Of a DNA stretch of 64,000 bases, positions 2,962 to 44,201 are shown piece after piece. The notes below the pieces were generated by a model. That model did not search any database and had not been told where the DNA came from. It worked only from the letters and a program-made list of their open reading frames with translations. This DNA is from an uncultured bacterium (GTDB lineage: Bacteria > Patescibacteriota > Minisyncoccia > UBA6257 > 2-01-FULL-56-20): assembly GCA_963844965.1 (NCBI GenBank), contig CAWJQC010000009.1, forward strand, positions 32,001 through 96,000, in the 5' to 3' direction. Numbering within the stretch: the stretch's first letter is position 1; every line of letters begins with the position of its first letter. Made by a program: the position numbers and the translations under genes.

Positions 2962-3032
2962 TACCCCCACTAGGAATCGGACCTAGGTCAACTGCTTAAA
3001 AGGCAGCTGCTCTACCACTGAGCTATGGGGGC
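2962..3032 (-). tRNA. tRNA-Lys (anticodon UUU)
   Basis: Minus-strand sequence GCCCCCATAGCTCAGTGGTAGAGCAGCTGCCTTTTAAGCAGTTGACCTAGGTCCGATTCCTAGTGGGGGTA folds as a cloverleaf. It has a 7-bp acceptor stem, D-arm GCTC/GAGC, an anticodon loop CTTTTAA (anticodon TTT), and T-arm CTAGG/TCCGATT/CCTAG. Confidence 0.8.
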
Positions 3033-10041: not shown

Positions 10042-10064
10042 AGTATTTTTAAATGATAATCTAT

Positions 10065-13266: not shown

Positions 13267-13689
13267 AGCAGGGTTACAAGGATCGAGAAGCGGTTGAGGC
13301 GACAAGCGACATTGCCTTGTCGTAAGGATAGCATGCGTCGGGACGAGGGTTTCGAAATGGCACTATTTCGGGAGCGAACGCCTGGTCGCAGGATGGGTGC
13401 ATTTACTTACAGGATGTTTCGCCGTGAGAGTTCACCCGACAGGCGGTTGAGGATTTTTTTGAGGGTTGTGCCAACCATCTCCTGATTACCAATTGAGGTT
13501 TGGTGTTAAGAATAAGTGAAACTTGGCTCTCCGACTCGTCTGTATCGGGCGGGGATCGGCGAATCGGACGGGCCCGTCTGCCGGAGCCGTTGATCTTATA
13601 CCAGTCATTTAGAGTCGATCACCGCCGGCTCAGCCTTGCTCTGAGCCAGCCCAATAAGGGAGATTTCTGCCATGTGGTAACACCAAGCC

Positions 13690-16600: not shown

Positions 16601-19223
16601 GACGATTGATTTCCAGTACCTCGAACCGGTTGTCGATAACGTCCCCTCGCCGACGTTCGATATCGCCGCCGTCCCCGGATTGGCGAGTCTGCTGGACGCC
16701 GACAACGCCATCGACTATACGGCCAGCCAGATTCTGCTTACCGGCGGCCGCGTGACGATCGACAATTTCGAGCCGATCGAGTTCGAGAACAAGGTCACCT
16801 TGGTCATCGACGCCGGGGCCGGCAGTGATGCGATCAATCTGAACAATCCCACCACGCCCACCGGCCTGGCGGCCATCACCGTCAACGGTGGCGACCCGTC
16901 GCTCGCCGATACGATCACCGTCAACGGCATCAAGGGGGCTACGGACCATTTCGTGGTGCTGCCCACGGCCGCAGGCAACGGAAACATTTTCGACACCGAC
17001 ACAGCGAGCGCCAAATATCGCCCCCGAGGTTCACTATTCCGGCATGCAAGGGGTCAACGTCGTGGGCCAAAACGCGGATGCGGACGCCTTGGCGGACGGA
17101 GGAACTGTGGGCGACGACTCGTTCACCTATAATCCTGGCACGACCGCGTCTTCCGGAGAGATTCACGGTTTCAACAGCGGTTTCTCCTTTGGGGCCTTGA
17201 CCTTTAACGGAATCACCGGCTGGGTCACGATGGGATCGCCTTTGGTGAACCTTACCGCAGGTTCGGCGACCGGCCTCCTCGTCCTCGGCGGCCACGACAC
17301 GGTGGTCATCGACGGGACGGCGGCTGACGATTCCTTCAATTGGGACAATTCTCTTGTATTCCTGCAGGTGCGAGTGGACACTGGCGGCGACCTTCACACC
17401 CCCATCGTCCTGGCCGGCGACCAAATCGTTGGATACGTTTCACACGTCATTGTGCAGGGGCTCGACGGCAACGACACGTTCAATGTGATTCCTGGGGGGG
17501 CCCCTGGCAGTGACTTGTTCGACATCCGCATCGAAGGAGGGGATTCCGATAGCTTTACCGACACACTAAACCTCAGCGGCGCCGTCGGCCCGGTGGGGGT
17601 GAATCTGGCCGACAGCACCGTGCCCTCCGACACCTCGATAACCGGCTACGGCAGCACCGTCACGCTCACCGGCGTCGAGTTGGTCCACATGGATGTCAAC
17701 GGCACAAACCCTGACGGTCACGGGCACGGCGGGCGCGGACCAGTTCAACTTCACGCCCACGGCGCTGGGCGTCGGCAGTTTCAAGGTCACGACCACCGGC
17801 GCCATCGTCGAGACCAGCCCGCAATTCACCTATACCGGCGTGGCGGCCACGGGCGTCACGCTCAACGGCGGTACGGGCGGATTCGACGTGCTGGGACTGA
17901 CGGCCACGGCCGGCAACGACACGATCAACGCCGTGCAGACCGACGCCACGCATTTGAGCTTCACCCTCAACGCGTTCACGCAGCCTTTCATTTTCGCCAC
18001 GCCGGCTTCGGTGCCAGGGGTCAACATCTACGCCGGCGCCGGCGATGACTTGATTCGCGTGAGCGTGACCAATGCGCTGGAAAGCACCACGCCGAGCGCC
18101 AGCCTGCGGTTCACGGTCGACGGCGGCGAGCCCAATGCCAGCGATCGGCTGCTCGTGAACGACGACGGCATTGGCGACCTGACTATCCTTCGCCAGGGCC
18201 CCGATGATCGAAGCGGCTCGGTGACGGTGGGCGTTCTGAATCCCGTTGTCTATGAAAACGTCGAGCGTCTCGACGTCACGCCGCTTAATCCCATCACCGG
18301 TGGGACCGGCACTGACGGCAACGGCCGCATCTTCGTCATGCATCAGAATCCGTTCGAGACCAACGACAGCCTCGCGAACGCACGGCGCAGATCGAGCGGC
18401 TGGCCGATTCGCCGACCAGCCCCACGATCGACCCGGCCGGCCTCAATACCCCTCCGTTTACGGTCAGCGGCGACGAAGATTGGTACGTCTTCCGTCCCAA
18501 GTTCACCACGGACTACCAAGTCCGCATCCTGTTCCATCGCATCGTGGCTTTGGCGAACGGCCGGCCTGGCCTGCCGGGCACCGGCGACTTGTCGCTCGAC
18601 ATCTACGACGCCAACGGGGCGTTGATCGTCTCCGGCGTGGCCGATGGAAACGGCGACAACCGCACGGCCATTTTCGGGGCCACGCCCACCGTGGCACAGT
18701 TCGCCACGATCTATATCCGCGTCAAAGGCGGAGAAGCGCCAGCTGGCGCCTCGGTCAATCTCTACGACTTCGACAACATCACCGCATTGACGTTCCCGGT
18801 GCCACCGGGGGTCGGCAACGTGGACGTGTTCGGTCCCCAGGTCACCGGCGTGGCCATCACCACCGCGCCGGCCTACAACTTGTTCGATCCCAAGGAATTC
18901 ACACATGGCGGCCTGGGCCCGACGCCATTGGTAAACGGCCTGACCATCAGTTTCAAGGATTTACCGGCACGCACCCCGGGCTTCGTCTATCCGGCCCTCG
19001 ATCCGGCCACGGCCAGCACCCGGGCACTTATGTGGTCAAGGGAGATGCCAACGGCATCGTTCAGATCTCGCAGATCATCGTGACCAACAACCCGCCGGCG
19101 GTGGGACAGGTGCCCACGGCGACGGTCCAACTGGTTTTCGCCCAGCCGTTGCCCGACGATCGCTTCACGTTGACGATCAACGACAATCTGCTCGATCCGG
19201 CCACCGCGTCTATAAATCCCTGA
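13690..19223 (+). pseudogene. Giant BNR/Asp-box repeat extracellular protein with a Planctomycetes-type N-terminus; contains 1 in-frame TGA and at least 4 frame changes
   Basis: The N-terminus MGFRNNS…MRNRHAAFEPLEERQLLSV matches the planctomycete 'LExLExRxLLS' signal-anchor motif. It has repeated SxDxGxTW boxes (SINGGATWQV, SDDGGGTWTR, TTDGGTTWANI). ORFs 13690, 14899, 15831, 16888, 17693 and 18246 are colinear pieces of one gene. Confidence 0.55.
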
Positions 19224-28947: not shown

Positions 28948-29952
28948 CTAACCGTGGCGCACGACAACCACGTCGCCGTCCTGAACCACATATTCTTTTC
29001 CTTCCAGCCGAATCTGCCCTTTTTGTTTCGCTTGCACCCAGCCGCCGAGTTCCAGAAGTTTTTGCCAGTTGATGACTTCGGCTCGGATGAAGTTCTTCTC
29101 AAAATCCGTATGAATGACGCCCGCCGCCTGCGGCGCCTTTGTACCGCGCTTTATCGTCCAGGCGCGCGTTTCGTCCTCGCCGGTCGTTAGAAAGCTTATC
29201 AAATCCAGAATTTTGTAGGCTTTCTCTATCAGAATCGGGAGCTTGTCGGACGCACCTAGGTCAGCCACGATATAATCCGCCCCCAACTCCCCTATTTTCT
29301 TTATCAATTCCGGCTTGACTTCATTTTCCTTACCGTTCAGGAGGTAAATCTGCCGCTTGGTGGTCAGTAAGTTCAACTCTTTCACGATTTCCTCGTCTTT
29401 ATGTTTCAAGATCAAATTGCCGCCGTTCAATTCCTTCCGCACCACCTCCAAGACAGCCAGGTTTTTCATCGCCTGCTTGTCGCCTGTGCGCGCTTCGCCC
29501 CCCAATTTTCCGAGGCGCTTATCAATCGTTTCCAAATCTTTCAAGGCAAGTTCGGAATTTGTAGTGATGAGATCGCGCAGGGCGTCAACTGAATTTTCCA
29601 CGTGTATAATTTCGGGGTTTTCAAATGTCCGAAGAACTAACACTATCGCCTGCGTGTCGCGGATGTGAGCCAAAAATTGGTTGCCTAACCCCTCGCCCTT
29701 GTAGGCGCCGCGCACGAGCCCGGCGATGTCGTAAAACTCAACGACCGCTGGCACAACCTTTTTGGAATTGCTCAATTTGGCGAGTTTTTCCAGGCGCTCG
29801 TCCGGAACCGACACAATGCCGACATTCGGGTCAATCGTCGCGAAAGGATAGTTGGCGATATTCACTTCTTGCTTCGTTAAAATTTTAAACAGGGTGGATT
29901 TGCCAACGTTGGGTAGTCCCACGATGCCGATTGAAAGTTTTTGACCCGACAT
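28948..29952 (-). CDS. ychF: Ribosome-binding ATPase YchF
   Basis: GIVGLPNVGKSTLF G1 motif, Obg-like GTPase core, and C-terminal TGS domain (…RLEGKEYVVQDGDVVVVRH). Confidence 0.9.
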   Translation of the reverse strand: MSGQKLSIGIVGLPNVGKSTLFKILTKQEVNIANYPFATIDPNVGIVSVPDERLEKLAKLSNSKKVVPAVVEFYDIAGLVRGAYKGEGLGNQFLAHIRDTQAIVLVLRTFENPEIIHVENSVDALRDLITTNSELALKDLETIDKRLGKLGGEARTGDKQAMKNLAVLEVVRKELNGGNLILKHKDEEIVKELNLLTTKRQIYLLNGKENEVKPELIKKIGELGADYIVADLGASDKLPILIEKAYKILDLISFLTTGEDETRAWTIKRGTKAPQAAGVIHTDFEKNFIRAEVINWQKLLELGGWVQAKQKGQIRLEGKEYVVQDGDVVVVRHG

Positions 29953-31523
29953 AGTTTAGATTTCTAATTGGTATACCGCCGTATACATGCAATTCTTCTT
30001 GAGTGCCTACGACTTTATCTATAACATCCCTAACTATCGTCTTTTTTCCCTCAAAATTCAAGCGTGCAACGACTTCCGCCGCGCACTCGGCAAATTCCCT
30101 TACCTCGTTCCATTGGGGCAAAATAAAGTCATTCTGGCGCTCTCCCGCCTCTGGCGGCTTTGGCATCCTGCTTTCCAGTAAAGCAACCCGTGCCCGTAAA
30201 TCGCTCTTGTATTCCTTCAGCTTCTCCATGCCTATCAGCCCCGCCCCGTATGCCCTGTCATAGCGAGCTTCCTCGTCTTTCAACTTCTCAACGTCCCTTT
30301 TGAAATTGAAAATGGATATATCGGGGCGCGCCGCGCTTTCTTTCTTTTTCCCGATAAACTTCTGCGCGTTTTTCATCATCAGTTCCGGCGAAGTCATAAT
30401 CCCTGCCGTCTTTTTCCATACGAGCGCATCGGCTATCCTCGCGTTTATTCCCCGCTCGGCGCACTTCGGAGGCAAGGGGAAGCTGTGAACCCTATCCGTG
30501 CAGCGATAATAAAGATGTTTCCCGCGCTGCGGGCCTTCTCCGGCCCGCCTTCTCCCGCATCCGCAGTAAATCTTCCCGCTCAAAAGATACTCGTTTTTCC
30601 GGTTTCGCTGGCACTCCGCGAAATTTACCGCAAGTTGCCGCGCCGCCCGCTCAAATAATTCTCGGCTGATGAGGGCGGGTGTCGTTATTTTTATCCACTC
30701 CTCCTCCGGCCTCACCTTGCGGCTCGTCTTTTTGATTCTCCGGTAGCCCTCTTTCTTAAACGGATTCTCCGGCACGACGGCATAAGAGCTTCCATAATGC
30801 CCTTCGCCTATGTAGGTTTTATTCCTCAAAAGCGTTGAAAGGGTGCTGGTATTCCAAACGCCCCGCGCGCTCCAGCGCGGCGCTATGCCCGCTTTCATAA
30901 GCTCCTTCACAACCTGCCGCAAAGTAAGCCCGTCATCGGCAATCCACGAAAATATCTTTTTAACAACGGTTGCCTCTTGTTCGTTGATTTCATAGCAGCC
31001 ATGTTTCCCATCCGTTTCTTTTTTCGGCTTAAAAATATAGCCGTAGGGAGCTTCGCTGGTAATAATATGCCCCTCTTTTGCCTTCCGCAGTTTCCCAAGC
31101 CGGAAGCGCTCGGCGATTTTCGCCCTCTCATACTCGGCAAAAAGCCCCCTAACACCGTGCAGGATTTTCTCCTCGCTATTTTTCGGACGGAATGGTAACG
31201 AACAATACTTCAACTCCCGCCTCCCGTAGTTCGTCCATCACCAATTCCTGATAAGAGTAGCGGCGGGCCAACCTATCTGGGTCATAAATCAAAACCGCTT
31301 CCCATATCTTCTTTTTCACGTCCTGCCGGAGCTGGTCGAGTTGAGGCCGCACGAGCGTGTCCCCGCTCCAGCCGTTATCAATGTATTCCTGCACGATGGT
31401 GTAGCCATTTTTCACGGCAAACTCCCGAACGGCGACAAGCTGGGTTTCAATAGTGCCTTCATCCGGCGAGGTGCTGACACGGGCGTATATGGCAATCAAT
31501 TTTATGATGGCGGCTTCGTTCAT
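29885..31523 (-). CDS. Large serine recombinase (resolvase catalytic domain + recombinase domain + zinc ribbon/coiled coil), split by a homopolymer frameshift near 31179-31183
   Basis: ORF 31176..31523 carries the catalytic domain with the YARVST serine motif. ORF 29885..31213 carries the recombinase domain and the C4 zinc ribbon (CGCG…CTDR…C). The two join if the A5/T5 run is one base shorter (…VTIPSE-NSEEKILHGV…). Its C-terminus overlaps the ychF start by 68 nt. Confidence 0.8.
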
Positions 31524-31747
31524 CGTTTCGTGTTCTTATGTTTGCTTAAAAACTTTTGATATTCGCTTTTCGGTATGCGCCAGAGCGCCGTCCCTTTGCC
31601 GAGTTTATACCCGACCAACAGCCCCTTTTGAAGCCAGCGTTGAACTGTGCGGGGATGTATCCGCAGATTTTTAGCGATTTCGTCTTTCGTGAGAAACTCC
31701 ATGCTTTTAATTCTATTCCCAATAGTCGCAGTTGTCAAAATTGTCAA
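31520..31747 (-). CDS. Excisionase-family HTH DNA-binding protein
   Basis: 75-aa ORF with …LTKDEIAKNLRIHPRTVQRWLQKGLL…, overlapping the recombinase start by 4 nt. Confidence 0.6.
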   Translation of the reverse strand: MTILTTATIGNRIKSMEFLTKDEIAKNLRIHPRTVQRWLQKGLLVGYKLGKGTALWRIPKSEYQKFLSKHKNTKR

Positions 31748-31807
31748 AAGTGGACATCTTACCCCACCACCCCACTCACTATATCGTAGGCGTAAAACAA
31801 TAGTGAG

Positions 31808-33334
31808 TTAGAGGGTGGGGTAAATGAGCATCCTCCTTCTATCGTCAGGGTCTGCTTCTTGGGCTATCAGTCCGGCATTTTCCAGCATCGGGATAATCTG
31901 TTGTCGCAAAAGCCAATCTGGGAGCGGCCGTCCATACACTTGGAAGTGTTTTTGCGTTATTTCCCGTCTTGTAAGCCCGCATGGGGCGCTCGCCATACCA
32001 TCATCATTCCTGCTTTGGTTCTTCTCCTCCCATAGAGGAATAATCACTTCGTTGAAAATCTGGTATACATACGGCGGCAGGTTCAGCTCTTGGCTTTCAG
32101 ATATAGCGTCCCACACTTTAAAGGCATTTTTGATGTCATCCTCATTCGCCACGATGGTTGAGCCGTCTCTCTCCCTGAACCAAACATTCAACAAGGCAAA
32201 TGCCTTAATAAGTGATAAAATACGTCCGATGTCTCGCTGGTGGCGCGGCTTCAACCTCTTGTTTGCGCTGAAAAATCCCTCCCCCACTTTTTCCGGCGTG
32301 CCTATTTTTATGTCGCTTATATGCGCCTGCCTAATTGCCAGTATCCGCTCTTTAAGAAGTTTGCGCTCCGGCTTTTCGTCCAACGCCAGTTGGTATGCTT
32401 CATTGTCGGCTTCTTTTCGTATTTTCTCATAAATTGCCTCCCGTATCTTTTCTTGGTCTGTCTGGGGACTTAACAATATAAATCTCGTCGTTTCCTGCTC
32501 GTCTGCTTTTAGTCCCGCCGTGCAAAAAATAACGGAGGGAAACCCCCTTAAAAATATATTTTTCGTTTTTAGCCCGCCTCGCTGTGTCTTATCGGTAATC
32601 TTGAGCTTTATCTCTTTTCTATCGTGCGAAAGTAGCGGGCGGAGATGTTGGAGAAGCAAGGTATGTGGCTGGTCAAGAAAAATGAGAATCTTACGGGACA
32701 AATCAACGACAAGTTCATTCGTCTCTTTTCTATACTCTTTTGCCTTATCGTGGAAAAATGCCGTTGGTGAGCAGTAGCCAAGTTCAATAATATCTTCTTG
32801 CGGAAATAATTGAGCAATTTCTGTTGGGATATAAGATTTACCAGTTGAAGAGGGGGCATTAAAACTGATATTGAGTTGTGCGTTCTCGGTATAGGCGGAA
32901 AGCTCGCAAAGGAAAGTAATGAGCTTATTCTCTTCGTCTTTTTTGATGGTTATGCCAAGTATTTTAAGAATCTCTTCGGATGAAAGCGGCTTGAATTGCG
33001 AGGTGTCAATCGGCATTTCCGGCGCTGGTTCGGAGTTTGTGTCCGCCAAAGGAGGTGTTTCGGCTGCATCTGCTATCGCCCTTCTCTCTTTAGGAATGGT
33101 CTCTTGGGTTTCCTCAATTCCCATTTCCTTCAGGATTTCGGTCAGTTCTGCTTCTTTTCTACAAAACCAACAAGTGCCACGCCCAGTTTCTGTATTGATA
33201 TGTAGCGCATCCTTCGTGCCAGAGACAGCATCGGCGCAATAAGGACAGCCGATTCTTAAGAAGTTGCCCACGACTTCATACTCTATCTTATTTTTGTTGA
33301 GTAGTTTCTTTAGGTCTATTAGATTTATTTTCAT
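31808..33334 (-). CDS. Primase-helicase-like replication protein (N-terminal zinc-binding motif + P-loop NTPase)
   Basis: CPYCAD…CWFC zinc motif, Walker A FNAPSSTGKSY, and a Walker-B-like ILIFLDQ. Confidence 0.55.
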   Translation of the reverse strand: MKINLIDLKKLLNKNKIEYEVVGNFLRIGCPYCADAVSGTKDALHINTETGRGTCWFCRKEAELTEILKEMGIEETQETIPKERRAIADAAETPPLADTNSEPAPEMPIDTSQFKPLSSEEILKILGITIKKDEENKLITFLCELSAYTENAQLNISFNAPSSTGKSYIPTEIAQLFPQEDIIELGYCSPTAFFHDKAKEYRKETNELVVDLSRKILIFLDQPHTLLLQHLRPLLSHDRKEIKLKITDKTQRGGLKTKNIFLRGFPSVIFCTAGLKADEQETTRFILLSPQTDQEKIREAIYEKIRKEADNEAYQLALDEKPERKLLKERILAIRQAHISDIKIGTPEKVGEGFFSANKRLKPRHQRDIGRILSLIKAFALLNVWFRERDGSTIVANEDDIKNAFKVWDAISESQELNLPPYVYQIFNEVIIPLWEEKNQSRNDDGMASAPCGLTRREITQKHFQVYGRPLPDWLLRQQIIPMLENAGLIAQEADPDDRRRMLIYPTL

Positions 33335-33502
33335 CTTAATTTTTGATTATTTTGTTAAAATCTTTCATCTTTCGCGCCCGCCACAACTCTAACGCCTTCT
33401 CAAACACCCGATTATAGGCCCGCTCCACTCTGCATCTGCGCTCCATATCCTCATCCTCCGTCATCCCTGCGGGCTCGTGATAAAATATTTTCAATGGCGT
33501 TC

Positions 33503-33754
33503 TCATTGGCTTTCGTAGAGCCGCCCCTTAATAATCCGCATCGCGTTGAAGTAGGCCGCCGGCTCGACCTTTAGCTCCCCGCGCCAGTAGCCCGTAATCA
33601 GTTCGTCCAATTTGGCATCCCGCTTGAAAATGAACTGCGCCTTGCGTGGATTCTCGCGGTCTATTGCTTCGAGCGGATAGAAAAGCGAAAGTGCCGTCGC
33701 GAGGGCGAGGTCTTGTGTCTTTACCAAATCATTTTCGTTTAATCGCGGAATCAT
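33503..33754 (-). CDS. Hypothetical protein
   Basis: 83-aa ORF. Confidence 0.4.
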   Translation of the reverse strand: MIPRLNENDLVKTQDLALATALSLFYPLEAIDRENPRKAQFIFKRDAKLDELITGYWRGELKVEPAAYFNAMRIIKGRLYESQ

Positions 33755-33855
33755 TCATGGCGATGACTCCGGCGAAATTAAAAAGCCGAAGCTCATCATG
33801 CTTCGACTTTACTAAATCGTCAGGTGAGTCAATTACGACTCAATTGCTTCACATC

Positions 33856-34632
33856 TTAATAATTCCGTTTTATTGTTTTTTCTTGCCAAGTAAATAATTC
33901 GTCATCTGTGTTGCACACTTCTTTTATCCGTTTGTTCAGGGCATCCATAGCGTCATAAACCACTCGCCAGTTTTCTCTGGTTGCTGGCGGTTTCCCGAAA
34001 AATGCTTTGTAATATCCGACTATTCCCTCATAAATTTTAGACCAATCTATGGGTTCGCTCGCTCTATACTCATACATCGCACGACAAAGAAAATGCTCAT
34101 TTTTATAGGGTGGAATTTGGCAATTTTGAGTTCCAATGTACAACAGCGCCTTATCATCGTCATATTTTATCCCCATAGATTTTAGGCTAATTTTTGGTTT
34201 TGTGGTATTTTCTATCGTTTCTTTTTCATCGCCATCCGGTTTTGGAGCGATGGCATCAAATTTTTCCGTGTCAATCTCCAAAATATAAACCGGCTTATCG
34301 TAATCCTTATCTGGAGAAGAAACGAAGTTTGGCCGCTTTGGATAGGTGGGTTGCGGCGCATGAGGCGCAAACATGTGTATCTTTTTAAGAACAACGCGAC
34401 CTTGCGCCATCCTCTCAAATCCTAATTTTATATCTTGGTCATCTAAACCCTCACTTAAGAGTTTCTCATGATATATCGGAATGTGAAGCGTTTTAATGCC
34501 AAACGGCCTCCGGTATTCCAGCGCATCATCTATTACTCCTAAAAGTATTTCATATTTATTCTTCATTTTCATTGTCATTATTGCCTTTATTTTACCACCT
34601 TTTCCGCGCTCCGGCAACATAAAATCAGACAA
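33856..34632 (-). CDS. Hypothetical protein
   Basis: 258-aa ORF with no recognised motif. Confidence 0.4.
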   Translation of the reverse strand: MSDFMLPERGKGGKIKAIMTMKMKNKYEILLGVIDDALEYRRPFGIKTLHIPIYHEKLLSEGLDDQDIKLGFERMAQGRVVLKKIHMFAPHAPQPTYPKRPNFVSSPDKDYDKPVYILEIDTEKFDAIAPKPDGDEKETIENTTKPKISLKSMGIKYDDDKALLYIGTQNCQIPPYKNEHFLCRAMYEYRASEPIDWSKIYEGIVGYYKAFFGKPPATRENWRVVYDAMDALNKRIKEVCNTDDELFTWQEKTIKRNY

Positions 34633-34827
34633 AAAACCGCCCCTTGCCGGCGGAAAATTCTCCCATTACGGATTACAGAAGGGGGTGGCAGGAGGGGCTG
34701 GAGATACCCTTTTTAGCGCCCCCATCATATCACTGGTGCTCATACGCACGCATCCCCTTAATATCGGGGGCATTGATACATACCCGATCCGATACCTGAC
34801 CCTATGCTGTTTCCTTATAAAACCGCA

Positions 34828-35103
34828 CTAACGCCAAACGAGGGGAAAAACCGCCATCGCGCCCTTTGAGGCCTGCTTTTTCTTTGGCTTTTTTCGCTCC
34901 TCCTTCGGAAGTTCGGGAATCCCATGCTCATCCGCCAGCATCACCTCGCTATGGTATATGCGCCATTTCCTGCCTATCTTAAAGCCCCGCAACTGCCCTC
35001 TTTCAAGGAAGCGGCGAATAGTTTTGATACTCACGGCCCAATGCCGCGCTAAATTTCTGGTCGTCCAAGAGCGTTGGACAATAAGCGCTTCGTCTCTGTC
35101 CAT
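34828..35103 (-). CDS. Excisionase/MerR-like HTH protein
   Basis: …WTTRNLARHWAVSIKTIRRFLERGQLRGFKIGRKWRI…. Confidence 0.55.
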   Translation of the reverse strand: MDRDEALIVQRSWTTRNLARHWAVSIKTIRRFLERGQLRGFKIGRKWRIYHSEVMLADEHGIPELPKEERKKPKKKQASKGAMAVFPLVWR

Positions 35104-35333
35104 GGATTGACTTCCTCCTTTGGGGCTTCGGCCAAGCCCTCGCGGGTTAATCGTAGCGCCTCCTCGTAGGGTATGCGGCGCAATTTTCCGAGCTTCACGC
35201 TTCTTATCTTCTGGCTTTTAATCCACCGGTTAATGGTCGCTATGCTGACGGAAAGCTGACGGGCGAGTTCCTTTGTTTTCCACGCGCGCTCCACAAAGTA
35301 TTCGTTGTAGCTCATGGTATAATTATACTCCAT
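35049..35333 (-). CDS. Excisionase/MerR-like HTH protein
   Basis: …WKTKELARQLSVSIATINRWIKSQKIRSVKLGKLRRI…; paralogous to the previous gene. Confidence 0.55.
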   Translation of the reverse strand: MEYNYTMSYNEYFVERAWKTKELARQLSVSIATINRWIKSQKIRSVKLGKLRRIPYEEALRLTREGLAEAPKEEVNPWTETKRLLSNALGRPEI

Positions 35334-35405
35334 GCGAGCATCATCTTATCCCCATCCACATCCACAACGCTTTACTTTAGCCCACAGATTGCTATTATTC
35401 AAATC

Positions 35406-35993
35406 ATGGCAGAGCCAATATCGCAGGAGAAGGAGGTTGTTTACATCAATTATTTTGACGGAATTGATATGGAAAGGGTGCGCCTCTTGATGGGCGTTTG
35501 CACACAAATTTTAGGCCAACTCAAACCAAAAACTTTATATTTTCTTTTCGCATCTCCTGGGGGACAGGTGGATGCAGGTATCGCTTTGTATAATTTTCTT
35601 AAAGCCATTCCTCCAAAAATCGTGATGCACAATATGAGTTCGGTGGATTCAATTGGAACTGTAGTTTTTCTTGCTGGGGATGAACGATACGCCTCTCCAA
35701 ACACCACTTTCCTTTTCCATGGTGTGAGTACTCAATTCCAGAAAGAAGCTGCCCTTAATTTAAGTCAAATCAAAGAAATAGAAAGCCGGCTCTCGGAAGA
35801 CCAAAATAAAATAGCTGGTATCATTGCTGACAACAGCCAAATTACAAAAGAAGAGGTGCAAAGGTTATTCGCTCAAGGAGAAACTAAATCCTTGGACTTC
35901 GCCAAGCAAAAAGGGTTCATCACTGACATTAAATCCCTCCGCCTCTCTCACGAGGATGTTCTTATCAATGTTGGTTTCCAAAGTAAGGGATAG
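35406..35993 (+). CDS. ClpP-like (S14 family) serine protease
   Basis: FASPGGQVDAGIALYNFL (ClpP SPGG box), a catalytic Ser context in NMSSVDSIGTVVFLAG, and His in FLFHGV. Confidence 0.6.
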   Translation: MAEPISQEKEVVYINYFDGIDMERVRLLMGVCTQILGQLKPKTLYFLFASPGGQVDAGIALYNFLKAIPPKIVMHNMSSVDSIGTVVFLAGDERYASPNTTFLFHGVSTQFQKEAALNLSQIKEIESRLSEDQNKIAGIIADNSQITKEEVQRLFAQGETKSLDFAKQKGFITDIKSLRLSHEDVLINVGFQSKG

Positions 35994-36136
35994 CTTTTCC
36001 CGTTCTAAATAGGGAAATCCCGCATAGAAGTAATTGGTGTCAGACAACTTTTTTTCTTTTTCCGGCATAGTCATGTACCCAGTATACCAAATCTCCACAA
36101 CGGTGCAAATGCGTCCACGGTTTTAATTTAATTGCG

Positions 36137-38115
36137 CTAATTACTGAAAAAACGATAGCAAACTCCATGTATTGTCTGGATACTTATCGTCTCGTTATAT
36201 ATGTTATTATCCCCTATACTGGCGCAATCTACCTCCTCAAATATGCCCGTAGAATAAGTCCCATTATTATCGTGAATGGTATTATACATAATTGTGTTTG
36301 CATCAAAAATACCATCGCCATTATTTTGAATATTGTTTAGCAGTACCTTGTCGCCGTCAAAAATTCCCGCATAATGGCGGCCTGTCCCACCGGACCCATC
36401 GGGAGCTTGCCATATACATACCCGCCTTTAGCTGAATTTTGAATTGTTAAATATTGAATTGTGCTGTTTTTTGCCCCCACTACTGTATTCCCGGTATTAC
36501 TACCGTCTATTATTGTTTTATTTTCATCTTCTCCGTAAATACTAACTCCATCTTTTAGCACAACATTTTCATAATAAGTACCGTCGGCTATTTTAATATT
36601 ATCTCCGCTTTGAGCGGCGTTTATTGCCGCTTGAATTGTTGGATAATCGGCTGGCACATTAATGACATTTTGCAATTGCGTAGAAAAAGATTTTTGATCG
36701 CTCGTAGCCGTATTACCACTTTTATCAGAAGCGTTTATTTTATAATTATAAATTGTCCCCGGTAATAATCCTGTAACAGAAATACTGTGGCTCGTTGAAA
36801 GCGTGGAATCAGATAATACTAATACGTCATAATCTCCAAAGGGAGAATATGATAATTGGATGGTACTGGGTTCGTCTGTTGTGAGTGAAATCACCGCAGA
36901 ATTTGTGGTTGTATTAGATGATTGGATATTAGATATTACGGGTGGCATGCTATCGCAAGAGGTCGTCTCGTCAGGTTTTCCAGTAGTAATTCCACAATGC
37001 ATCAAATCGTTGCAGGTTCGTGTTTGTTGAGAATTTGCACAAGTGCTCCATGAGCCACATTGCCAGTTAGGAGTACACGTACATGATTGCGTCAAAGCCG
37101 GTTCTCCGGTTGAAACGCCGCAACTGTTTGAATCGTTGCAGGTTCGTGTTTGCATAGAATTCAAGCAGGTGTTCCAATTTGTGCATTGCCAATTTGGGGT
37201 ACAATTAACCGTTGTTGAACAACTGGTAGTTTGAGTTTGCCCGCCAAAATTAACAGTAAGATTGGCTGTTTTAGTACCTGCTTGAGAAAAAGAATTTGAA
37301 CAGCTTGATTTAGACCCAACACAATCACCAGTCCAAGAATAAATATAAGTACCAGTTCCTCCTAAAATTGCGACAGAGGAAGAAAATGTTACCGATTGGT
37401 TTGTTTGGTATGAGTTTGAATTTGCCGAACAAGAAACGGAAAGCGTTGCTGTGGGCGGAGTGCACGATTGAGTTAAAATTGGCTCTCCGGTTGCAACTCC
37501 ACAATTATTTGAATTGCTACAAGTCCTCATTTGTTGGGAATTTGCACAAGTGCTCCATGAGCCACATTGCCAATTTGGAGTACATGCTGGTGGCGTAGTA
37601 TTTTGTTGAATTTGCTGAAGCGTTTGATTTGTTTGCTGTTGGGCCGCTAACTGTTTTTGCAACAAGGCAACCTGCTGCAGAAGTGCGCTCAATTGCGACT
37701 GCAGTGAATTATTAATGTCATTCGTAGTTGCGGGCGGCGTTGGAGTTGGCGGCGTTGAACTGGTTTCCGCAATCGCCTGCGCGTTGGATGCCGAAAGCTG
37801 TTGCGACAATATCGCGTTTGCTGCCGTTCTTGTGAGCGGCCCGAAATATCCCGCGGGTGGCGTTATGTCTTGAGTAGTTTGGAATTGCTTGACCCCCGCG
37901 AGCGTCAAAGAAAAGAAATTGCCGCTGATTGGGCCGGAATATACGCCTTGAGATGTAAGAAATTCTTGGAGCTTGGTAACGTCGGAATCGCCCTGTATGC
38001 CGAAATATAAATCTTTTGTGAATAAGGTTTGCGCCTTGACCACTGGAATACCAAAGGAAGCCACGAGAAGAACTGCGATAACAAATTTTTTCATATTCAT
38101 TTTCATTGTTTTCAT
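36137..38115 (-). CDS. Secreted multidomain protein: signal peptide, peptidoglycan-binding domain, 3 Cys/Trp-rich repeats, FN3-like domain and right-handed beta-helix; split by a homopolymer frameshift near 36359-36363
   Basis: PG_binding_1-like LQEFLTSQGVYSGPISGNF…, three copies of CTPNWQCGSWSTCANSQQTRTCNDSNSCG, and PbH1-type repeats (IKIADGTYYENVVL…). After the annotated stop the other frame continues with beta-helix repeats (…FDGDKVLLNNIQNNGDGIFDANTIMYNTIHDNNGTY…). Lengthening the T5 run to T6 joins the two frames. Confidence 0.6.
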
Positions 38116-38128
38116 GGCACTCTTTTTT

Positions 38129-38332
38129 CTAACGAACAACATTAACCATCGCACAATCTCCTTCGTAACACTTTAGAAGGTCTAATATACTGCCTGCAGG
38201 GTTGTTGCTGTAAATATCGGATGTTGTTTTATAAATCTTTTCCAACTGCGAGGAAATGCGAAACAGTAAAACAATCGCCACTATCAGCAAAGCGACTATT
38301 ACCCATAGGGGGCTCGTAGATTTTAAATCCAT
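38129..38332 (-). CDS. Small membrane protein (holin-like, speculative)
   Basis: 67-aa ORF with 1 TM helix. Confidence 0.35.
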   Translation of the reverse strand: MDLKSTSPLWVIVALLIVAIVLLFRISSQLEKIYKTTSDIYSNNPAGSILDLLKCYEGDCAMVNVVR

Positions 38333-38338
38333 AAAAAT

Positions 38339-38554
38339 TTATTTTTTATCAGCCCAAAGTTTGTAAAGAATGAAGGTAATAATTCCAAAGAAAATAAAGA
38401 AGAATGGAACAGTGATTAAGCTCCCAATTATAACTGTATAGCCGTTGAGAGAATATCTCCCATCAAGAACGCCCAGAAAATATGAAGAATAGAACCCAAC
38501 AATCGGAGATAAAATTAAATAAATAGTGATGATTATTTTTTGAGATTTATTCAT
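38339..38554 (-). CDS. Small two-TM membrane protein (holin-like, speculative)
   Basis: 71-aa ORF with two hydrophobic helices. Confidence 0.4.
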   Translation of the reverse strand: MNKSQKIIITIYLILSPIVGFYSSYFLGVLDGRYSLNGYTVIIGSLITVPFFFIFFGIITFILYKLWADKK

Positions 38555-39095
38555 ATAATTTTATTTTTCCATATTTTAAATCTAACCAAAAAGGGACTAA
38601 CCGCACCACCTTGCGTCCCACAGTTTCAGACACCACGAGGGCATCTTTAGTGGAAGATGGGCGATTAGCCCCTTCCTGCACTAAAGAAAAACCCTCTGGC
38701 GACACAAAACCGTAGGACGCACCTTTACTATACCACGATAGCCCCGCAAGGCAACAAAAGCAACCGCCCGTTCGTGGGGCGATGTCCCACTCTTTTTTGA
38801 AACTCCAAAGAAAACTAACCCTATGGGGTTAAATCAAAAAGCCGGCGCGGACTTTCCCGCCGGCCCGAAACCGCGCCGAAATTGAATCACCGCCCCGCCC
38901 CCGCCGTGCCGCTCAAAGCCGGTCTGCGCCCTCTCGCTGGAAACGGCATCCTAATCGTAAATTCAAATGGAATCAGTTTTAATCTGCCTTCGCTCTCAAC
39001 CCCGTGTCGTGTTGTGTTCGCTCCATACCTATGGATAGTTTCATTTGTGTTAATATTAAAGAAAAGTCGCGTAATTAACAAATAGTATAAACGAT

Positions 39096-40490
39096 ATGAA
39101 TAAAAAAATTGTTTTTACGGCCGCTTCGGCCGCATTTCTGCTCGTAGTTTTATTGGCAAACGCCCAAATGCCGGTTCCTGCCGCTAATAACGCAGAAGCG
39201 TCTGGTGTCGGCACGGTGGCATCGAGCGCAACCGCAACGGTTGTTCCTGGAGCCATGAATCCAACTTTTATCATCAACCCGGTATCTCCAACGCTTGGCG
39301 GAAGTAATTCTTCGGGAACACCGGTCATGAATCCGCCGATTATAGCAAGACCCATATTGCCGCCGACGCAGGGCAATAATATTATCCAATTCAACAACCT
39401 AACCGTACAAAGCGTTTCGGCAACCACCCCGCCGGCAGAAATTGTAGCCAATGGCGGTATCTATAACATTCAGAGCGGCGGCACAACACCGCCAACGATG
39501 CAGCCGATGAATGCGCAAGTTTTCCCGCAAGCCACGCAGACATCTTCAATGAATTATTTGCAATCCAAATGTTTGAGGTATGAAAGTTTAGAGTCAAATT
39601 CCCCGATGGTAATCGCCTGCCCTGTTCCTCAAACTTCCGCTCCCGCGAGTTCAACCGTCACTGTCTCGCCCGGAGCAACCGCAATAATGCCAGTAGTGCC
39701 ACCGATATATCGCGGCGGACAATATCGTCTTGAGGTATCCACAACGACCCACCTCATGTTTAATGACCGTACATCGGCGGCATTAACCGATTTCTCGCCC
39801 GGCGATCAAATAAACGTTTACGGCATATACAATGAGGACGGAACCGTAGACGCGCTTATCGTTCGCAATCTTTCCAAGCCGTTCACAAAGCAGTTTGTCC
39901 AGCTCAACAACGTTAATTTGGTTTCGGTCTCGGCGACAACCACTCCGGCAACGCTTGTGGTCGCGCAGCAAATCGCCAATCCCTGTTACGGTTTCGGCAC
40001 CGATGGTAACACTAGGCAGGGAGCCATAGCCTGCCCCACGGGACTGCAATCGTTATCCGACAATGCCGCGTCGCAGAATGTCACGGTGCCGCAAGCCATA
40101 ATGCCCATTTTCAACCAATCGCGGAAGTATGTGATACAAATCGACACGCAAACAATACTGATGGACCGTGAGCGGGGTACACTCGCGCTTGGTGATCTCA
40201 AGATTGGTGATCAATTGAATATTTACGGCGCGACGCTGGACACAAACGGCGCGACGATTAATGCGGATATCGTCCGCGACCTCACGCAACCTCCGGTGGC
40301 GCAGAACTACAGTGGCCGCGTTACTCAGGTGAACGCCGACGGCTCGTTCGTGATTCAGAACTGACGGCGGCGAAACGTACACGGTGCAAAATCCGATACA
40401 AGTCGGCGCGACGGTCCAGCTCAAGGGGTTATTGGACCAGCTGCAAAAAATTATATCGCAGGTTTCTCAGATTATATTGCAGTGAATAAC
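39096..40490 (+). CDS. Secreted repeat protein with a signal peptide, a Pro/Thr-rich region and three beta-rich repeats of about 55 aa; the last repeat is split by a frame change at about 40362
   Basis: MNKKIVFTAASAAFLLVVLLANA signal. The repeats are …SPGDQINVYGIYNEDGTVDALIVRNLS… and …LGDLKIGDQLNIYGATLDTNGATINADIVRDLT… After TGA (40362..40364) the +1 frame continues …DGGETYTVQNPIQVGATVQLKGLLDQLQKIISQVSQIILQ*. Confidence 0.5.
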
Positions 40491-40550
40491 GGGCGAGAAT
40501 CACCCAACCAAAAAAGAAGGCGGAAACTAGGCAACGTTTCCGCCTTTTGG

Positions 40551-40724
40551 CTTACACCGCCCAGCCATAGCCATCTTCCCATTGTTCACTGCCGTCTTCG
40601 AGCGGATTTATCACCCCGGTTTCTTCCGCTTCCAGCTTCTTCGTTTCTGGAGTTTCATTTTTTGGCCGTACTTCAACCGTCTTTCCATTCGATGTCGACT
40701 GATCGTAAGGTCTTGACATTGTTC
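40551..40724 (-). CDS. Small acidic hypothetical protein (57 aa)
   Basis: MSRPYDQSTSNGKTVEVRPKNETPETKKLEAEETGVINPLEDGSEQWEDGYGWAV, with a GGAGGTGAACA-ATG Shine-Dalgarno. The upstream region at 40725..40870 contains three palindromes. Confidence 0.35.
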
Positions 40725-41049
40725 ACCTCCCAAAGAGCTATCTGCGATTCAGACCGTTTTCTGGTCTGAAAATTGATTATTTTCCAAACAATCAATTTTC
40801 AGGCCGGCATTGATTTAAAAAACCTCCTTTGGCGGGGAGGTCTTTTGCATTTTGATTTTGATATTTTATCGGTTTTTTACATATATGCAAGACCCCCTCG
40901 CCGTTTTCGGAGAATAAGTACAAGCAGAAGGCCAAGAAGACTCCGGGAGGACAAGGGCAAACTTTGAATTGCGAGATATGGCGTGTTCATTGTCATTTAG
41001 GTTCAGTTTATAGTGTTTGTCGGCTATGTCAAGAGCGCCCTGTGGAAAA

Positions 41050-41415
41050 TTAAATGCCGCTGTTTTTCTTTACGCCTCGCGCCATTTCAAAAAGCGCGAG
41101 CGCTCCCATCAAAAGCCCGACGTCCCTGAACGTGATGTCCAAGATGTTCAAATTCAGAACAACTATCGCCGCGAGCGTTATGGCGGCGAGGAGCGAAACC
41201 CAAACGAGCTTGCGGCCCCAGAAAAGAAAAGCTGCGAGTATTATCTCATAAACGGAAAATGCGGCGGAGAGTAAGTTTGAGAACGGCATGTTCTGCAAAA
41301 ACTGGGGAAAATATCCGGCCCAGTCGTCGGATTTAATAAGTCCGGCTATGGCGGCGTAGAAGAAAACAAATGCCAGTCCCCAGCGCAAAATAATCTCGGC
41401 GGAATTTCTGTTCAT
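41050..41415 (-). CDS. DoxX-like small membrane protein (putative)
   Basis: 121-aa ORF with 4 TM helices. Confidence 0.4.
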   Translation of the reverse strand: MNRNSAEIILRWGLAFVFFYAAIAGLIKSDDWAGYFPQFLQNMPFSNLLSAAFSVYEIILAAFLFWGRKLVWVSLLAAITLAAIVVLNLNILDITFRDVGLLMGALALFEMARGVKKNSGI

Positions 41416-41425
41416 CCGTTTGTAT

Positions 41426-42433
41426 TTACATTATACCTTTCGGGGTCTTACTTATTCGCACCTCCGAACCTGGCACGGTCACCCACTCGTCGTTAACCAA
41501 TTCCTGGGTTGCCTTGAAAGATACGACCGCTTCCTCTTTGGGATGAACTCGGTCTTCTCCTTTTACCATTCTACTAAAAATTACGTCGCGCAGTTCCCGT
41601 TTCTGGTCGTCTTCGTACTTGTGTAATATCTCGCAATCGCTCAAGAAAATTTTATGCCAGCTGCCACTGGGGTAGCCTGGCTCCCCGATAATTTCTTCCT
41701 CAACTTCTTCAACGTCGTGTTCAGCTGGATTCGCGGGGGTGGAAGATATTTCCCTTATAAGACGACGTCGCTTATCGCCCTCACGCCATTCCCTGATGAC
41801 TTGATATTCTTCTTTTTTCGGTTCATCCACGCCTGCTTGTTCCATGTTTTTTATTATCTTTGATACAGCCCGACAAGATACCGCTTGTGCAAGTAAATAC
41901 CTATTTATCTCCGCCTCAAGAGATTTTTTGTCCGAACCCGACTTTAAGTCAATTACAGCGCTTAGCGCGTAAATTGTAAAGTGATAGTGGTGAACTCCGG
42001 ATGGCGGGCAGGGACCGACGTAAGAAATCGTACCCGAACCATTTTTCCCTTCAATACTGCCGGCCGGCAAATCGCCATCCTCAATAACGGACGTCTTCGG
42101 GTCAATGTTCCAAACCAGCCAGTGCGTGAAGCCGCCGGCCATCGGCGCGTCCGGATCGTGCATTATGAGCGCCAAGCTTTTTGCTCCGGCCGGCACGCCG
42201 GAAATATCCAACTCGGGAATTGTATTTTCCCCGTCGCAGGTGAATCTCCTTGGAATATAGCCGTTATTTTCAAATGAGGTGCTTGTGATAGTCATAGAAT
42301 TATTTATTGGGTTATTGTTGATGGTTGATGTTGCTGGAGTCGTCGTTATCCGAGACGCACGAAAAATATAAGCCGATACGAAGATTATAGCAAAAATTAT
42401 GAATATTACGGTAATTCTCCGCGTTTTAGACAT
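41426..42433 (-). CDS. YbhB/YbcL-family PEBP (Raf-kinase-inhibitor-like) protein with an N-terminal TM anchor and a C-terminal acidic extension of about 150 aa
   Basis: …CDGENTIPEL…ALIMHDPDAPMAGGFTHWLVWNI…GPCPPSGVHHYHFTIYAL…. Confidence 0.7.
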   Translation of the reverse strand: MSKTRRITVIFIIFAIIFVSAYIFRASRITTTPATSTINNNPINNSMTITSTSFENNGYIPRRFTCDGENTIPELDISGVPAGAKSLALIMHDPDAPMAGGFTHWLVWNIDPKTSVIEDGDLPAGSIEGKNGSGTISYVGPCPPSGVHHYHFTIYALSAVIDLKSGSDKKSLEAEINRYLLAQAVSCRAVSKIIKNMEQAGVDEPKKEEYQVIREWREGDKRRRLIREISSTPANPAEHDVEEVEEEIIGEPGYPSGSWHKIFLSDCEILHKYEDDQKRELRDVIFSRMVKGEDRVHPKEEAVVSFKATQELVNDEWVTVPGSEVRISKTPKGIM

Positions 42434-42522
42434 TGTTTTAGACTATCAATTTATCAGTATATTACCTTCAAAATTAATGTTAAGTGCCGAAAAATTCAGT
42501 AAAATCAGGAAAAAATCGGCTG

Positions 42523-42550
42523 TTGACAAATATATAGAATCTGCTACAAT
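42523..42550 (+). promoter_or_regulatory. Near-consensus sigma70 promoter, TTGACA-N16-TACAAT
   Basis: TTGACA at 42523..42528 and TACAAT at 42545..42550; no protein gene follows. Confidence 0.6.
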
Positions 42551-42556
42551 ATGAGC

Positions 42557-43128
42557 AGCACCACCGAGAAGATTCCGGTGGGCCAAAATCTGTAAACCGT
42601 CGCTTATCAAAGGCGACGGGACGAAGGAGGATGCCATGGCGGCAAAAAAGGGAGTACCTGCTTTTCTGATTTCTTACGGCCAAGCTGGACGGGAACGGAA
42701 CAATATCCGGACCGCAGAGGTTGTGGTGTGCGTGTTGGGTCGTTCCACTACCCACCACCTTGAACTTCGGGGTGGAAAGTGGCTTGGCAAGAACGGTGTG
42801 GAATACAAAATCAACGACCGCATCAGAAATCGTAAGAACTGAGAGGGTCCAAAAGCCCACCACCCAGGACCCTAATCGAGGAGAGTGAGCTGTGCCAAGT
42901 AGGTAGACCCGCCGCCGAGGCCTAAGTCGGGGGGTTGAGAGACCAAAAATTCAGTCAAAATAAAAACAAATCCCGCGCTGACCCCAGCCGGTTGTATCCA
43001 GGGTGATACCGGTCAAACAAAAATCCACACTGGCTCCGCGAAAGCGAGGCGAAGTCTGTAGAAGATAGCACTCTACAGAAGGCAGGGCGGCAGTGCCCCA
43101 GGAGAGTTGGAAGACTCTCCTTTTTTTA
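42557..43128 (+). ncRNA. Candidate structured ncRNA of about 570 nt, identity unknown (RNase P RNA-like, OLE-like or novel)
   Basis: The interval runs from the promoter to a strong terminator with no credible protein gene. It contains many perfect stem-loops: CCGTCGC…GCGACGG, GGGTCC…GGACCC, CCGGT…ACCGG, TCTGTAGA…TCTACAGA, a GAAA tetraloop, and CCACTACCCACC / GGTGGAAAGTGG. Confidence 0.45.
43101..43128 (+). terminator. Intrinsic terminator
   Basis: GGAGAGT-TGGAAG-ACTCTCC hairpin followed by T7. Confidence 0.7.
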
Positions 43129-43430
43129 TTGTTCACTCGCAAGAATACCCTATACCTTCTTGCAACGTGATGAGAAGGTGTAGGGATGAATTGCGATGTG
43201 TGAATAATAAACCCCTCCCCATTTGTGGCAGGGGTTTGGTGATAACACCCAGCGAGAGCCGTAAGGCGACTTCGTCTTTGTATGTCGTGTGCGCATAGTT
43301 TTTGCGGCAAATGGAGAGGGGTGAATAACCGCAAGACCGCAGAGCGGCTTGGATACCGCACCGCTCTGCGGTGCGGTTATTCATTTTCTTTTCGGGAAAA
43401 AGGTGGCGATAGCAGGTTTAGTGGCCCAAA

Positions 43431-43766
43431 CTACGCCGCCGTTTTCATGTAATCGTTGTATGCCTGCCTGATCAAGTCGGTCGCAATCTCGCTCCTCGGT
43501 TTTGTCCGGCCCGGATACCGCCAGGCGCTGATAATCCTGCGGCGGGTTTTCGCGTCCTGGATCATCGTCCAGAGTTCATAGGGATGCTTTTTGCTGCCTC
43601 TGACCTGCATATAGGCGACCGTTCTCGGCGCGATCCCCTCTTCCACGCGCGCCGGTGAGTGGAGAATATTTTTCACCCGCTGTTCCGACAGACCGTAAAA
43701 CCGCATCTTGGAACGCACGTGATTGGTCCAGTACAAAATTCTCGGCTTATTGATTATAAGCGGCAT
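43431..43766 (-). CDS. DUF4258/RelE-like toxin-family protein (putative)
   Basis: …WTNHVRSKMRFYGLSEQRVKNIL… resembles the H-x3-RM-x2-RGI motif of DUF4258. Confidence 0.35.
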   Translation of the reverse strand: MPLIINKPRILYWTNHVRSKMRFYGLSEQRVKNILHSPARVEEGIAPRTVAYMQVRGSKKHPYELWTMIQDAKTRRRIISAWRYPGRTKPRSEIATDLIRQAYNDYMKTAA

Positions 43767-44201
43767 GGAGGGTTAGAAGTATTACCGCTTATTCATATTA
43801 ACCTCAAATCCGCATCTTGGAAAACAAATAACTGCGGACATAAAAATGCCTGATGATTATGGATAGGCCCCCATAAGAATGGGGGCTGGGCCGCACCCGG
43901 AGGCGACTTATCGCGGCATATCTCCATTTTCAACTCTTCTGATCGCTGGTTGTTGGGCGCGGCGGCTGGGTCGCTACTCCACTTTTTCATTTTCATTAAA
44001 TTTATTTGACTTGTTTGCTTGGCTGACCTTTGTTTTTGTTATTATTGCTTTCTTGACGAACTGGTTCTCATAAATTGTCGGCGATTTGTTTTTTATTATT
44101 ATCATGAAAGAATTTTAGAATGCTGGCAGTGAATATTGGATGAAAACACAAAAAAGGACCCCGTGATTGGATCCTTTTTTGATTTCCGATTTCCCGCACA
44201 A

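Follow-up and report, generated by a model that had tools for sequence, protein, structure and literature searches.

A probable plasmid-like element of Paceibacteria-type bacteria that appears to have entered the start of ychF through an attachment site inside its own recombinase gene

How can a mobile element enter the first codons of a conserved gene and leave that gene open? The question is raised by ychF in a 64,000-nt stretch of DNA from an uncultured Patescibacteriota bacterium (GenBank assembly GCA_963844965.1, contig CAWJQC010000009.1, positions 32,001 to 96,000; hereafter the window), where the reading frame of a large serine recombinase (LSR) runs into the 5' end of the gene. The original prediction for this locus, made from the sequence alone, was an integrative element of about 14 kb at 29885..44130, with an LSR at the 5' end of ychF and with element DNA rebuilding the start of the host gene. 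Junctions and relatives both agree with such an insertion, and they shorten it: the right limit fails and the element ends at 39029. We consider it highly probable that 29929..39029 (~9.1 kb) is an integrated, plasmid-like element, neither phage nor conjugative, of Paceibacteria-type bacteria of the Candidate Phyla Radiation (CPR), which an LSR inserted into the glycine codon that ends MKLSIG in ychF. The features that carry this reading are the following.

28948..29952, minus strand: ychF, a hybrid gene (Pfam MMR_HSR1 and YchF-GTPase_C).
29903..29952, minus strand: ychF-proximal junction (P arm, GG, B' arm), with the P arm ATGTCGGGTCAAAAACTTTCAATC at 29952..29929, the crossover GG at 29928..29927 and then the host B' arm CATCGTGGGACTACCCAACGTTGG.
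29885..31213, minus strand: C-terminal LSR fragment with the end of the catalytic domain, recombinase domain, zinc (Zn) ribbon and coiled coil (PF07508 Recombinase, PF13408 Zn_ribbon_recom).
31176..31523, minus strand: N-terminal LSR fragment with the resolvase catalytic domain and the motif YARVSTS (PF00239, E=1.6e-23).
38887..39027, minus strand: detached 3' end of the LSR gene, 46 codons and a stop, beginning YGANTTRHGVESEGRLKLIPFEFTIRMPFPARG; the in-frame continuation after the GG join, 19/19 nt identical to the related locus L089.
39004..39044, minus strand: far junction (B arm, GG, P' arm), with the native ychF start ATGAAACTATCCATA at 39044..39030, GG at 39029..39028 and the P' arm TATGGAGCGAACACAACACGACAC at 39027..39004.

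Both ends of the insertion can be read directly. At ychF, ATGTCGGGTCAAAAACTTTCAATCGG is joined to CATCGTGGGACTACCC, and codons 1-8 together with the first two bases of Gly9 (29952..29927) are derived from the element, the remainder of the gene being host sequence. At the far end, the native start with GG, ATGAAACTATCCATAGG (MKLSIG), is joined to TATGGAGCGAACACAACACGACAC. A degenerate ATG-K-L-S-I-G pattern has a single match on either strand of the window, at 39044, and this start lies 51 nt from a divergent DUF5666 gene, where synteny places the old ychF start. Blastn-short and tblastn searches with the ychF 5' region against the whole window returned one weak, correctly placed match at 39053..39024. 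Direct repeats of the ychF 5' region had been expected near 43770..44130; none is found there, and the displaced start stands at 39044..39028 instead. The two junctions share GGYAT and scattered codon-level identity only, with no long direct repeats.

The undivided site can be seen in L089, which carries a 62%-identical, uninterrupted LSR that does not adjoin ychF. There, the 19 nt GGTATGGAGCGAACACAAC of the P' arm, identical at 19/19 positions, stand directly after ...ATGTCAAAATGTGCTCTCTCGATC at the 3' end of the recombinase gene. Judged by its sequence, L089 is an unintegrated relative that shows the contiguous attP (P arm, GG and P' arm in a 50-bp dyad), the halves of which lie 9.1 kb apart in the window. 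The dyad around GG, ATGTCG.GT ... AC.CGACA(C/T), is imperfect in L089 as well as in the attP reconstructed from the window, with 20/30 dyad-symmetric positions in the former and 14/30 in the latter (12 of the inner 25; shuffle p ~0.007). The crossover is placed at GG because the dyad symmetry centres there, and from this placement the element (~29929..39029) measures roughly 9,101 bp. The reconstructed attB junction reads ...ATGAAACTATCCATAGG-CATCGTGGGACTACCC... and the reconstructed attP junction ...AAACTTTCAATCGG-TATGGAGCGAACACAAC..., and these sites have the format of LSR attachment sites: an attP of ~50 bp, an attB of ~40 bp, an imperfect dyad and a central dinucleotide.

A comparison among relatives shows that the site exists in both states. 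A scan for YchF with one genome per species gave 80 loci, all from Paceibacteria/Liptonbacteria-type CPR bacteria, with YchF identities of 63-74%. At three of the 80 (L024, L048, L062), a homologous, uninterrupted LSR runs into ychF, which amounts to a presence/absence polymorphism at a fixed site. Recombinase homologues on long contigs led to four further contexts (L083, L086, L087, L088), in all of which an LSR likewise overlaps ychF, so that seven other loci with this arrangement were found in total. The start of YchF follows occupancy: most empty-site relatives begin with MKLSIGIVGLPNVGKS (MKLSIG), the window protein with MSGQKLSIG, and the proteins of element-bearing relatives with MSGQ-, MSGT- or MSGL-KLSIG or with MGYKLSMG. 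The target consists of the codons for the P-loop N-terminus of YchF (...LSIG/IVGLPNVGKS, split at the bar), which is conserved across the sampled relatives. That the element rebuilds the start of its host gene, as first proposed, is thus upheld by the different starts of empty and occupied sites, by the native start at the far end and by the contiguous attP of L089.

Far junctions of the same kind occur elsewhere. Scanning metagenome contigs with the P' arm gave nine further examples, in each of which the first 5-6 codons of a native ychF run at GG into the P' arm; the tail frame of the recombinase is open in six of the nine and in the window's own junction. For the elements in L062, L083, L086, L087 and L088, no far end was found within 10 kb by the strict MKLSIG pattern. 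An 18-nt core of the P' arm, GGCATGGAGCGAACACAAC, is also present in six unrelated metagenome contigs (L097, L099, L102, L105, L106, L108), preceded by ...AA(A/T)(A/G)AGGCG in five of them and by ...GATGAGTGC in L105; these contigs may contain a different conserved element in which the motif recurs by chance. Two further inserts without a recombinase (L006:5708-9998, identical with L098, and L111:4007-6355) are bounded on one side by ychF and on the other by a far junction with native ychF start, P' arm and tail remnant; the ychF starts at their two ends are near-identical. They may be decayed or non-autonomous relatives.

The junctions divide not only ychF. As first predicted, the open reading frame (ORF) of the LSR overlaps ychF in a different frame, by 68 nt or ~22 codons. 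The crossover lies 13 codons before the present LSR stop, and everything from there through the stop is host ychF sequence in another frame: the tail, RGTTQRWQIHPV followed by the stop, fits the out-of-frame pattern of GIVGLPNVGKS. When the two arms are joined at GG, the recombinase frame extends as ...NYVGSKTFNRYGANTTRHGVESEGRLKLIPFEFTIRMPFPARG... to a stop at 38887, and the joined attP ORF reads ...NRYGANTTRHGVESEGRLKLIPFEFTI.... In the integrated state the tail remnant is untranslated; its frame is open, its conserved motifs are kept, and terminator-like hairpins follow it at 38832..38815 and 38783..38763. The left arm of attP is dual-coding, with ...NYVGSKTFNR in the recombinase frame and the substitute YchF start MSGQKLSIG in the other, and integration therefore leaves ychF open. 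This split-gene architecture of the recombinase is well supported.

Both versions of the tail are found among the 120 closest homologues. The native motif R[YH]G.NT.RH ... [IV]PFEF.I.LP.P (RYGANTTRH...IPFEF) forms the C-terminus of 20, whose genes are uninterrupted, and a ychF-derived tail, R[HN][RC][RGW]x[ATSP][KQE][RC][RGW][KQE][IV], that of ~95 by a looser pattern and of 75 by the strict one. Among the ychF-type tails, 55 read through and 20 stop at a TAA derived from CCT-AAT, and most of the remaining 25 sequences are visible variants with other stops. Because the read-through tail is present in ~95 of the 120, the LSRs that carry it are, as far as their C-termini tell, a large family of CPR elements. 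In the AlphaFold2 model of the uninterrupted homologue P0016, the att-encoded residues 525-550 form a low-confidence linker and IPFEFRI a confident beta-strand at 551-559 (block pLDDT 85). Integration would thus exchange a conserved and, according to this model, probably structured C-terminal element for 13 host-derived residues. It is tempting to speculate that the change of tail tunes the activity or direction of the recombinase, although we rather doubt it. Equally tentative is the wider proposal of an apparently undescribed CPR family with two recombinase isoforms according to integration state, in which the swapped tail would help to set directionality or stability, as a counterpart of IntP/IntX in phage Mx8.

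The recombinase itself is canonical, and the Resolvase, Recombinase and Zn_ribbon_recom domains bear out the original assignment as an LSR overlapping ychF. The Y-R-V-S columns of the catalytic motif, with its nucleophilic serine, are invariant in 40 homologues, and the P0016 model shows canonical LSR domains with long helices (385-470) between the strands of the Zn ribbon; its best matches in the PDB are serine integrase-att complexes (PhiC31, Bxb1, 4kis). A search with the LSR against IMG/VR gave only matches of 25% identity. In the window, the gene is interrupted by a net indel of -2 (or +1) at or next to an A5 run (~31183-31189), at ...CCGTCCGAAAAATAGCGAGG..., where homologues read TCG CCG AAA AAC GGA; the indel splits the catalytic domain / helix E region. 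The interruption is found in 0/119 listed homologues, the window's own fragment (P0001) being excluded. P0001, the public protein record for the locus, is the same 442-aa fragment; exact-protein records for the window's ychF, LSR fragment and 508-aa protein (described below) were not found. Programmed frameshifting at the A run was considered and rejected, since all listed homologues except the window fragment have Resolvase and Recombinase in one protein. Unless the frameshift is an assembly error, the window element may be immobile or dependent on a recombinase supplied in trans.

This lesion gives weight to the strongest alternative, in which the recombinase was inactivated after integration and the block is now an ordinary, fixed part of the chromosome, its overlap with ychF having no present function. 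Besides the frame that is unbroken in the listed homologues, the LSR-less remnants at the same site in L006 and L111 fit this account. Against it stand the singleness of the lesion, its position at or next to a homopolymer, where an assembly error is possible, and the prospect that a recombinase acting in trans could use attL and attR. The original prediction had itself named a degraded recombinase as evidence that would speak against it. The gene is indeed interrupted, but no second defect was found, and both att junctions and the detached tail-coding remnant, open and with its conserved motifs, are intact; this favours a recent lesion or an assembly error. We regard a dead remnant as a real possibility, albeit not the one that we favour.

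Several points weigh against our reading of an integrated, plasmid-like element. The position of the crossover at GG and not at the adjacent AT is deduced from the symmetry and from the identity with L089. The LSR frame is broken, which puts the activity of the window copy in doubt. The exact empty-site pattern of the window strain has no match in the metagenome_contigs set, the contiguous attP of L089 being the only proxy for an excised form, and the inserts of L006/L098 (4.3 kb) and L111 (2.3 kb), lying behind a far junction of the same type without an LSR, indicate that such elements decay in place. Finally, the element is called plasmid-like because phage and conjugation genes are absent and one helicase-like protein is present, most of the cargo having no recognisable function. 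The other genes within the element are listed here.

31520..31747, minus strand: HTH_17/excisionase-like protein directly upstream of the LSR (Pfam and PHROG excisionase matches).
31808..33334, minus strand: 508-aa protein with a Zn ribbon and a P-loop (NAPSSTGKS), putative replication helicase (no Pfam or PDB sequence match).
33336..33754, minus strand: 56-aa ORF and DUF5659 protein (PF18903), part of a conserved module.
33856..34632, minus strand: 258-aa protein without a family match; a protein of similar size is found at the equivalent position in L083 and L087.
34828..35333, minus strand: two overlapping HTH_17 proteins (Pfam/PHROG matches).
35406..35993, plus strand: ClpP/S14-like protease, variable cargo (PF00574, E=2.3e-16; PHROG head-maturation-protease families).
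36337..38154, minus strand: secreted protein with PG_binding_1, Cys-rich repeats, fn3 and a borderline DUF1565 beta-helix (domain searches).
38129..38554, minus strand: two small hydrophobic peptides of 67 and 71 aa (no family matches).

Much of the inventory given in the original prediction can be recognised in this list. The three Xis-type HTH proteins correspond to the three HTH_17/excisionase-like proteins, the ClpP-like protease has its PF00574 match, and the predicted peptidoglycan-binding/beta-helix exoprotein is the secreted PG_binding_1/fn3 protein, its DUF1565-like part being borderline. The predicted primase-helicase has a Zn ribbon, a P-loop and many Toprim-fused homologues, but no primase domain. 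The two small membrane peptides are present as well; their label, holin-like, is conjecture.

The helicase-like protein and its neighbours link the element to its relatives. With 2550 homologues at E <= 1e-5, the 508-aa protein is a member of a very large, strongly conserved family; its identity to the 119 best is 59-77%, and the upper values apply over the ~80% of the query that Toprim-fused homologues cover. Some members of this family lie on contigs labelled Planctomycetota or Margulisbacteria, and many are Toprim fusions. Searched singly and as a profile, the protein had no match among INPHARED phages, PLSDB plasmids or IMG/VR at the sensitivity used, and it is not similar to the proteins that stand at its position in L083, L087 and L088. 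DUF5659 also occurs in L062, L083, L024 and L114, and an HTH_17 gene takes the position upstream of the LSR in L024, L062, L083, L086 and L087 as well; the HTH_17 protein at 31520..31747 is a candidate recombination directionality factor. In L114, a module of DUF5659, helicase-like protein (10001-11614), HTH_17 and a different LSR is found at a site other than ychF, with AbiE and NERD cargo. The uninterrupted LSRs with a contiguous attP (L089:1-14684, L115) adjoin genes for DUF87/TrwB-like ATPases, and L089 also has Replic_Relax and RuvC. It seems that this ychF-directed recombinase also serves larger, possibly conjugative elements.

Could the element be a small temperate phage or satellite, with the ClpP-like protein as prohead protease and the peptidoglycan-binding protein and membrane peptides as lysis cassette? 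The matches of the protease to PHROG head-maturation-protease families would fit, as would the position of the PG_binding_1 gene beside the two hydrophobic peptides. However, Pfam and PHROG searches of the element ORFs detected this protease as the only such candidate and, in agreement with the original prediction, no capsid or terminase, nor portal or tail families; INPHARED and IMG/VR gave no match to the helicase-like family; and the related elements examined do not have these cargo genes, the ClpP-like gene included. In addition, a tailed phage needs more than 9.1 kb. We consider a phage origin improbable. Family searches found no relaxase and no type IV secretion system or coupling protein in 29929..39029, and no piPolB or other polymerase family among the element ORFs. 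From this gene content we infer a small plasmid-like integrative element with exchangeable cargo.

How such an element would move can be sketched from its sites and genes. The LSR would act on the attP within the 3' end of its own gene, and the element would enter the Gly codon at the end of MKLSIG. In the integrated state, ychF is open and lies directly downstream of the HTH_17 and recombinase genes, with its native start and upstream intergenic DNA displaced by 9.1 kb. Transcription of ychF would now start, together with that of the HTH_17 and LSR genes, from a promoter-like site, TTGACA-17-TAGAAT, at 31738..31710 (promoter scan 11/12); no minus-strand terminator-like site was found between this site and ychF. 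The adjacent HTH_17 protein may serve as excision factor; once excised, the element would leave a native ychF in the chromosome and regain its full-length recombinase, and the Zn-ribbon/P-loop protein could support replication of the excised circle.

The remaining ~5 kb of the predicted 14-kb block, up to 44130, had been assigned to the element, with a secreted repeat protein (DUF5666), PEBP and a DUF4258-like protein as cargo; a DoxX gene lies there too. These genes do adjoin the element, and an ORF-poor stretch among them (42434..43430) is ~1 kb longer than the spacer in relatives. In relatives, however, the usual neighbourhood reads (GDH, SIS) - DUF4258-like - PEBP - (DoxX) - (DUF5666 protein, divergent) - ychF - recR - dnaB - cysS, and at least one of the DUF4258-like, PEBP and DUF5666 genes stands upstream of ychF in 41 of the 80 loci, with a detectable recombinase in 0/41. 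Because these 41 loci keep the genes there, in the same order, without a detectable recombinase, the window genes at 39096..43766 are, by their conserved synteny, ancestral host neighbours of ychF and not cargo. The right end of the block, ORF-poor kilobase included, is thus host DNA. With a precise B-GG-P' junction at 39029 and no ychF-like repeat near 43770..44130, a single 14-kb element is very improbable.

The flanking DNA has some features of its own. The stretch at 42434..43430, between the PEBP and DUF4258-like genes and outside the element, extends for ~1 kb without a long ORF, where the spacing is only ~130 bp in relatives such as L001, and a part of it (43318..43388) is 86% identical to L031:1154-1224. 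It may be the non-coding RNA of the original prediction. That claim finds no support, since the ORF-poor stretches match no Rfam family: searches of the whole window and, at a permissive threshold, of 38500..39100 and 42350..43500 gave only tRNA-Lys at 2962..3032 and one chance-level match, and 42434..43430 had no match at E<=1. The PEBP gene (41426..42433) encodes 335 aa, of which only residues 60-184 form the PBP domain, the C-terminal 150 residues having no family match. Further away, 7.7 kb at 11500..19200, adjoining hrcA/grpE (10065..11377), have a GC content of 0.58-0.66 as compared with ~0.48 elsewhere, and contain eight long plus-strand ORFs with Pfam matches in 0/8. This region could be a foreign island.

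That the recombinase is a domesticated host invertase or switch regulating ychF, and not part of a mobile element, is very improbable: the gene is tightly coupled to ychF and overlaps it, and a pneumococcal prophage adjoining ychF modulates the expression of that gene, but the recombinase is present in some relatives and absent from others, the junctions are attL and attR and not inverted sites, and the cargo differs among copies.

Mobile elements of CPR/Patescibacteria are, to our knowledge, barely catalogued, and we know of almost no genetic tools for these bacteria. The locus described here provides base-pair-resolved attP, attB, attL and attR for a recombinase family of many CPR lineages. 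The conservation of the ychF target would explain why this family is so widespread, and in organisms that resist genetic manipulation the same target may offer a natural entry point for site-specific integration. Both the use of overlapping frames and the dependence of the recombinase C-terminus on integration are open to in vitro tests with short DNA sites, which bear on how the direction of serine integrases is controlled. In annotation, the recombinase tail over ychF should be treated as host DNA, and a ychF gene that begins with MSxxKLSIG indicates an occupied site.

In a limited literature search, neither a serine recombinase gene spanning attP nor a dual-coding arm nor this CPR family turned up; several known systems share single traits with the element. 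In Actinobacteria, LSR-encoding pipolins integrate at ychF (Mateo-Caceres et al., NAR 2024, PMC11551731). They resemble the window element as LSR elements that have ychF as integration site and differ from it in their host phylum and in the piPolB/polymerase, which is undetected here; the part of that account considered here does not mention att structure, a reconstituted 5' end or a split recombinase gene. A Streptococcus pneumoniae prophage lies between dnaN and ychF, with its integrase gene directly upstream of ychF and with ychF expression altered by integration state (Chen et al. 2019, PMC6375853; PMC8637289). Unlike our element, it sits in the promoter region, at a direct repeat of 14 bp, and does not alter the ychF coding sequence.

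The divided recombinase gene has its closest analogues among tyrosine recombinases. The Myxococcus phage Mx8 has its attP within the reading frame of its integrase, so that the integrated gene is a recombinant with a new 3' end whose protein product is altered (IntP/IntX; PMC6070905). The SSV-type integrase genes of Sulfolobus fuselloviruses are interrupted on integration by an att site in the gene (PMC5861418). As in these systems, integration of the window element alters the integrase coding sequence; the resemblance is functional only, since both families are tyrosine recombinases. SSV-type integrases target tRNA genes. They are archaeal enzymes whose gene is interrupted, whereas the window element detaches only the last ~46 codons. 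Mx8 does not integrate at the 5' end of a protein-coding gene, nor does it rebuild a host gene by means of a dual-coding arm.

For the rebuilt host gene, the nearest parallel may be the dusA-associated integrase islands, which reportedly enter a conserved housekeeping gene at its 5' end and keep it intact by supplying a replacement for that end. They are said to differ from the window element in their tyrosine integrase, their target, the direct repeats at their ends and an unsplit integrase gene. LSR elements that disrupt genes, such as SPbeta in spsM, skin in sigK and the Listeria phage phi10403S in comK, inactivate a host protein-coding gene until they are excised. The window element is likewise an LSR element inside a host protein-coding gene, but it keeps that gene by giving it a new start.

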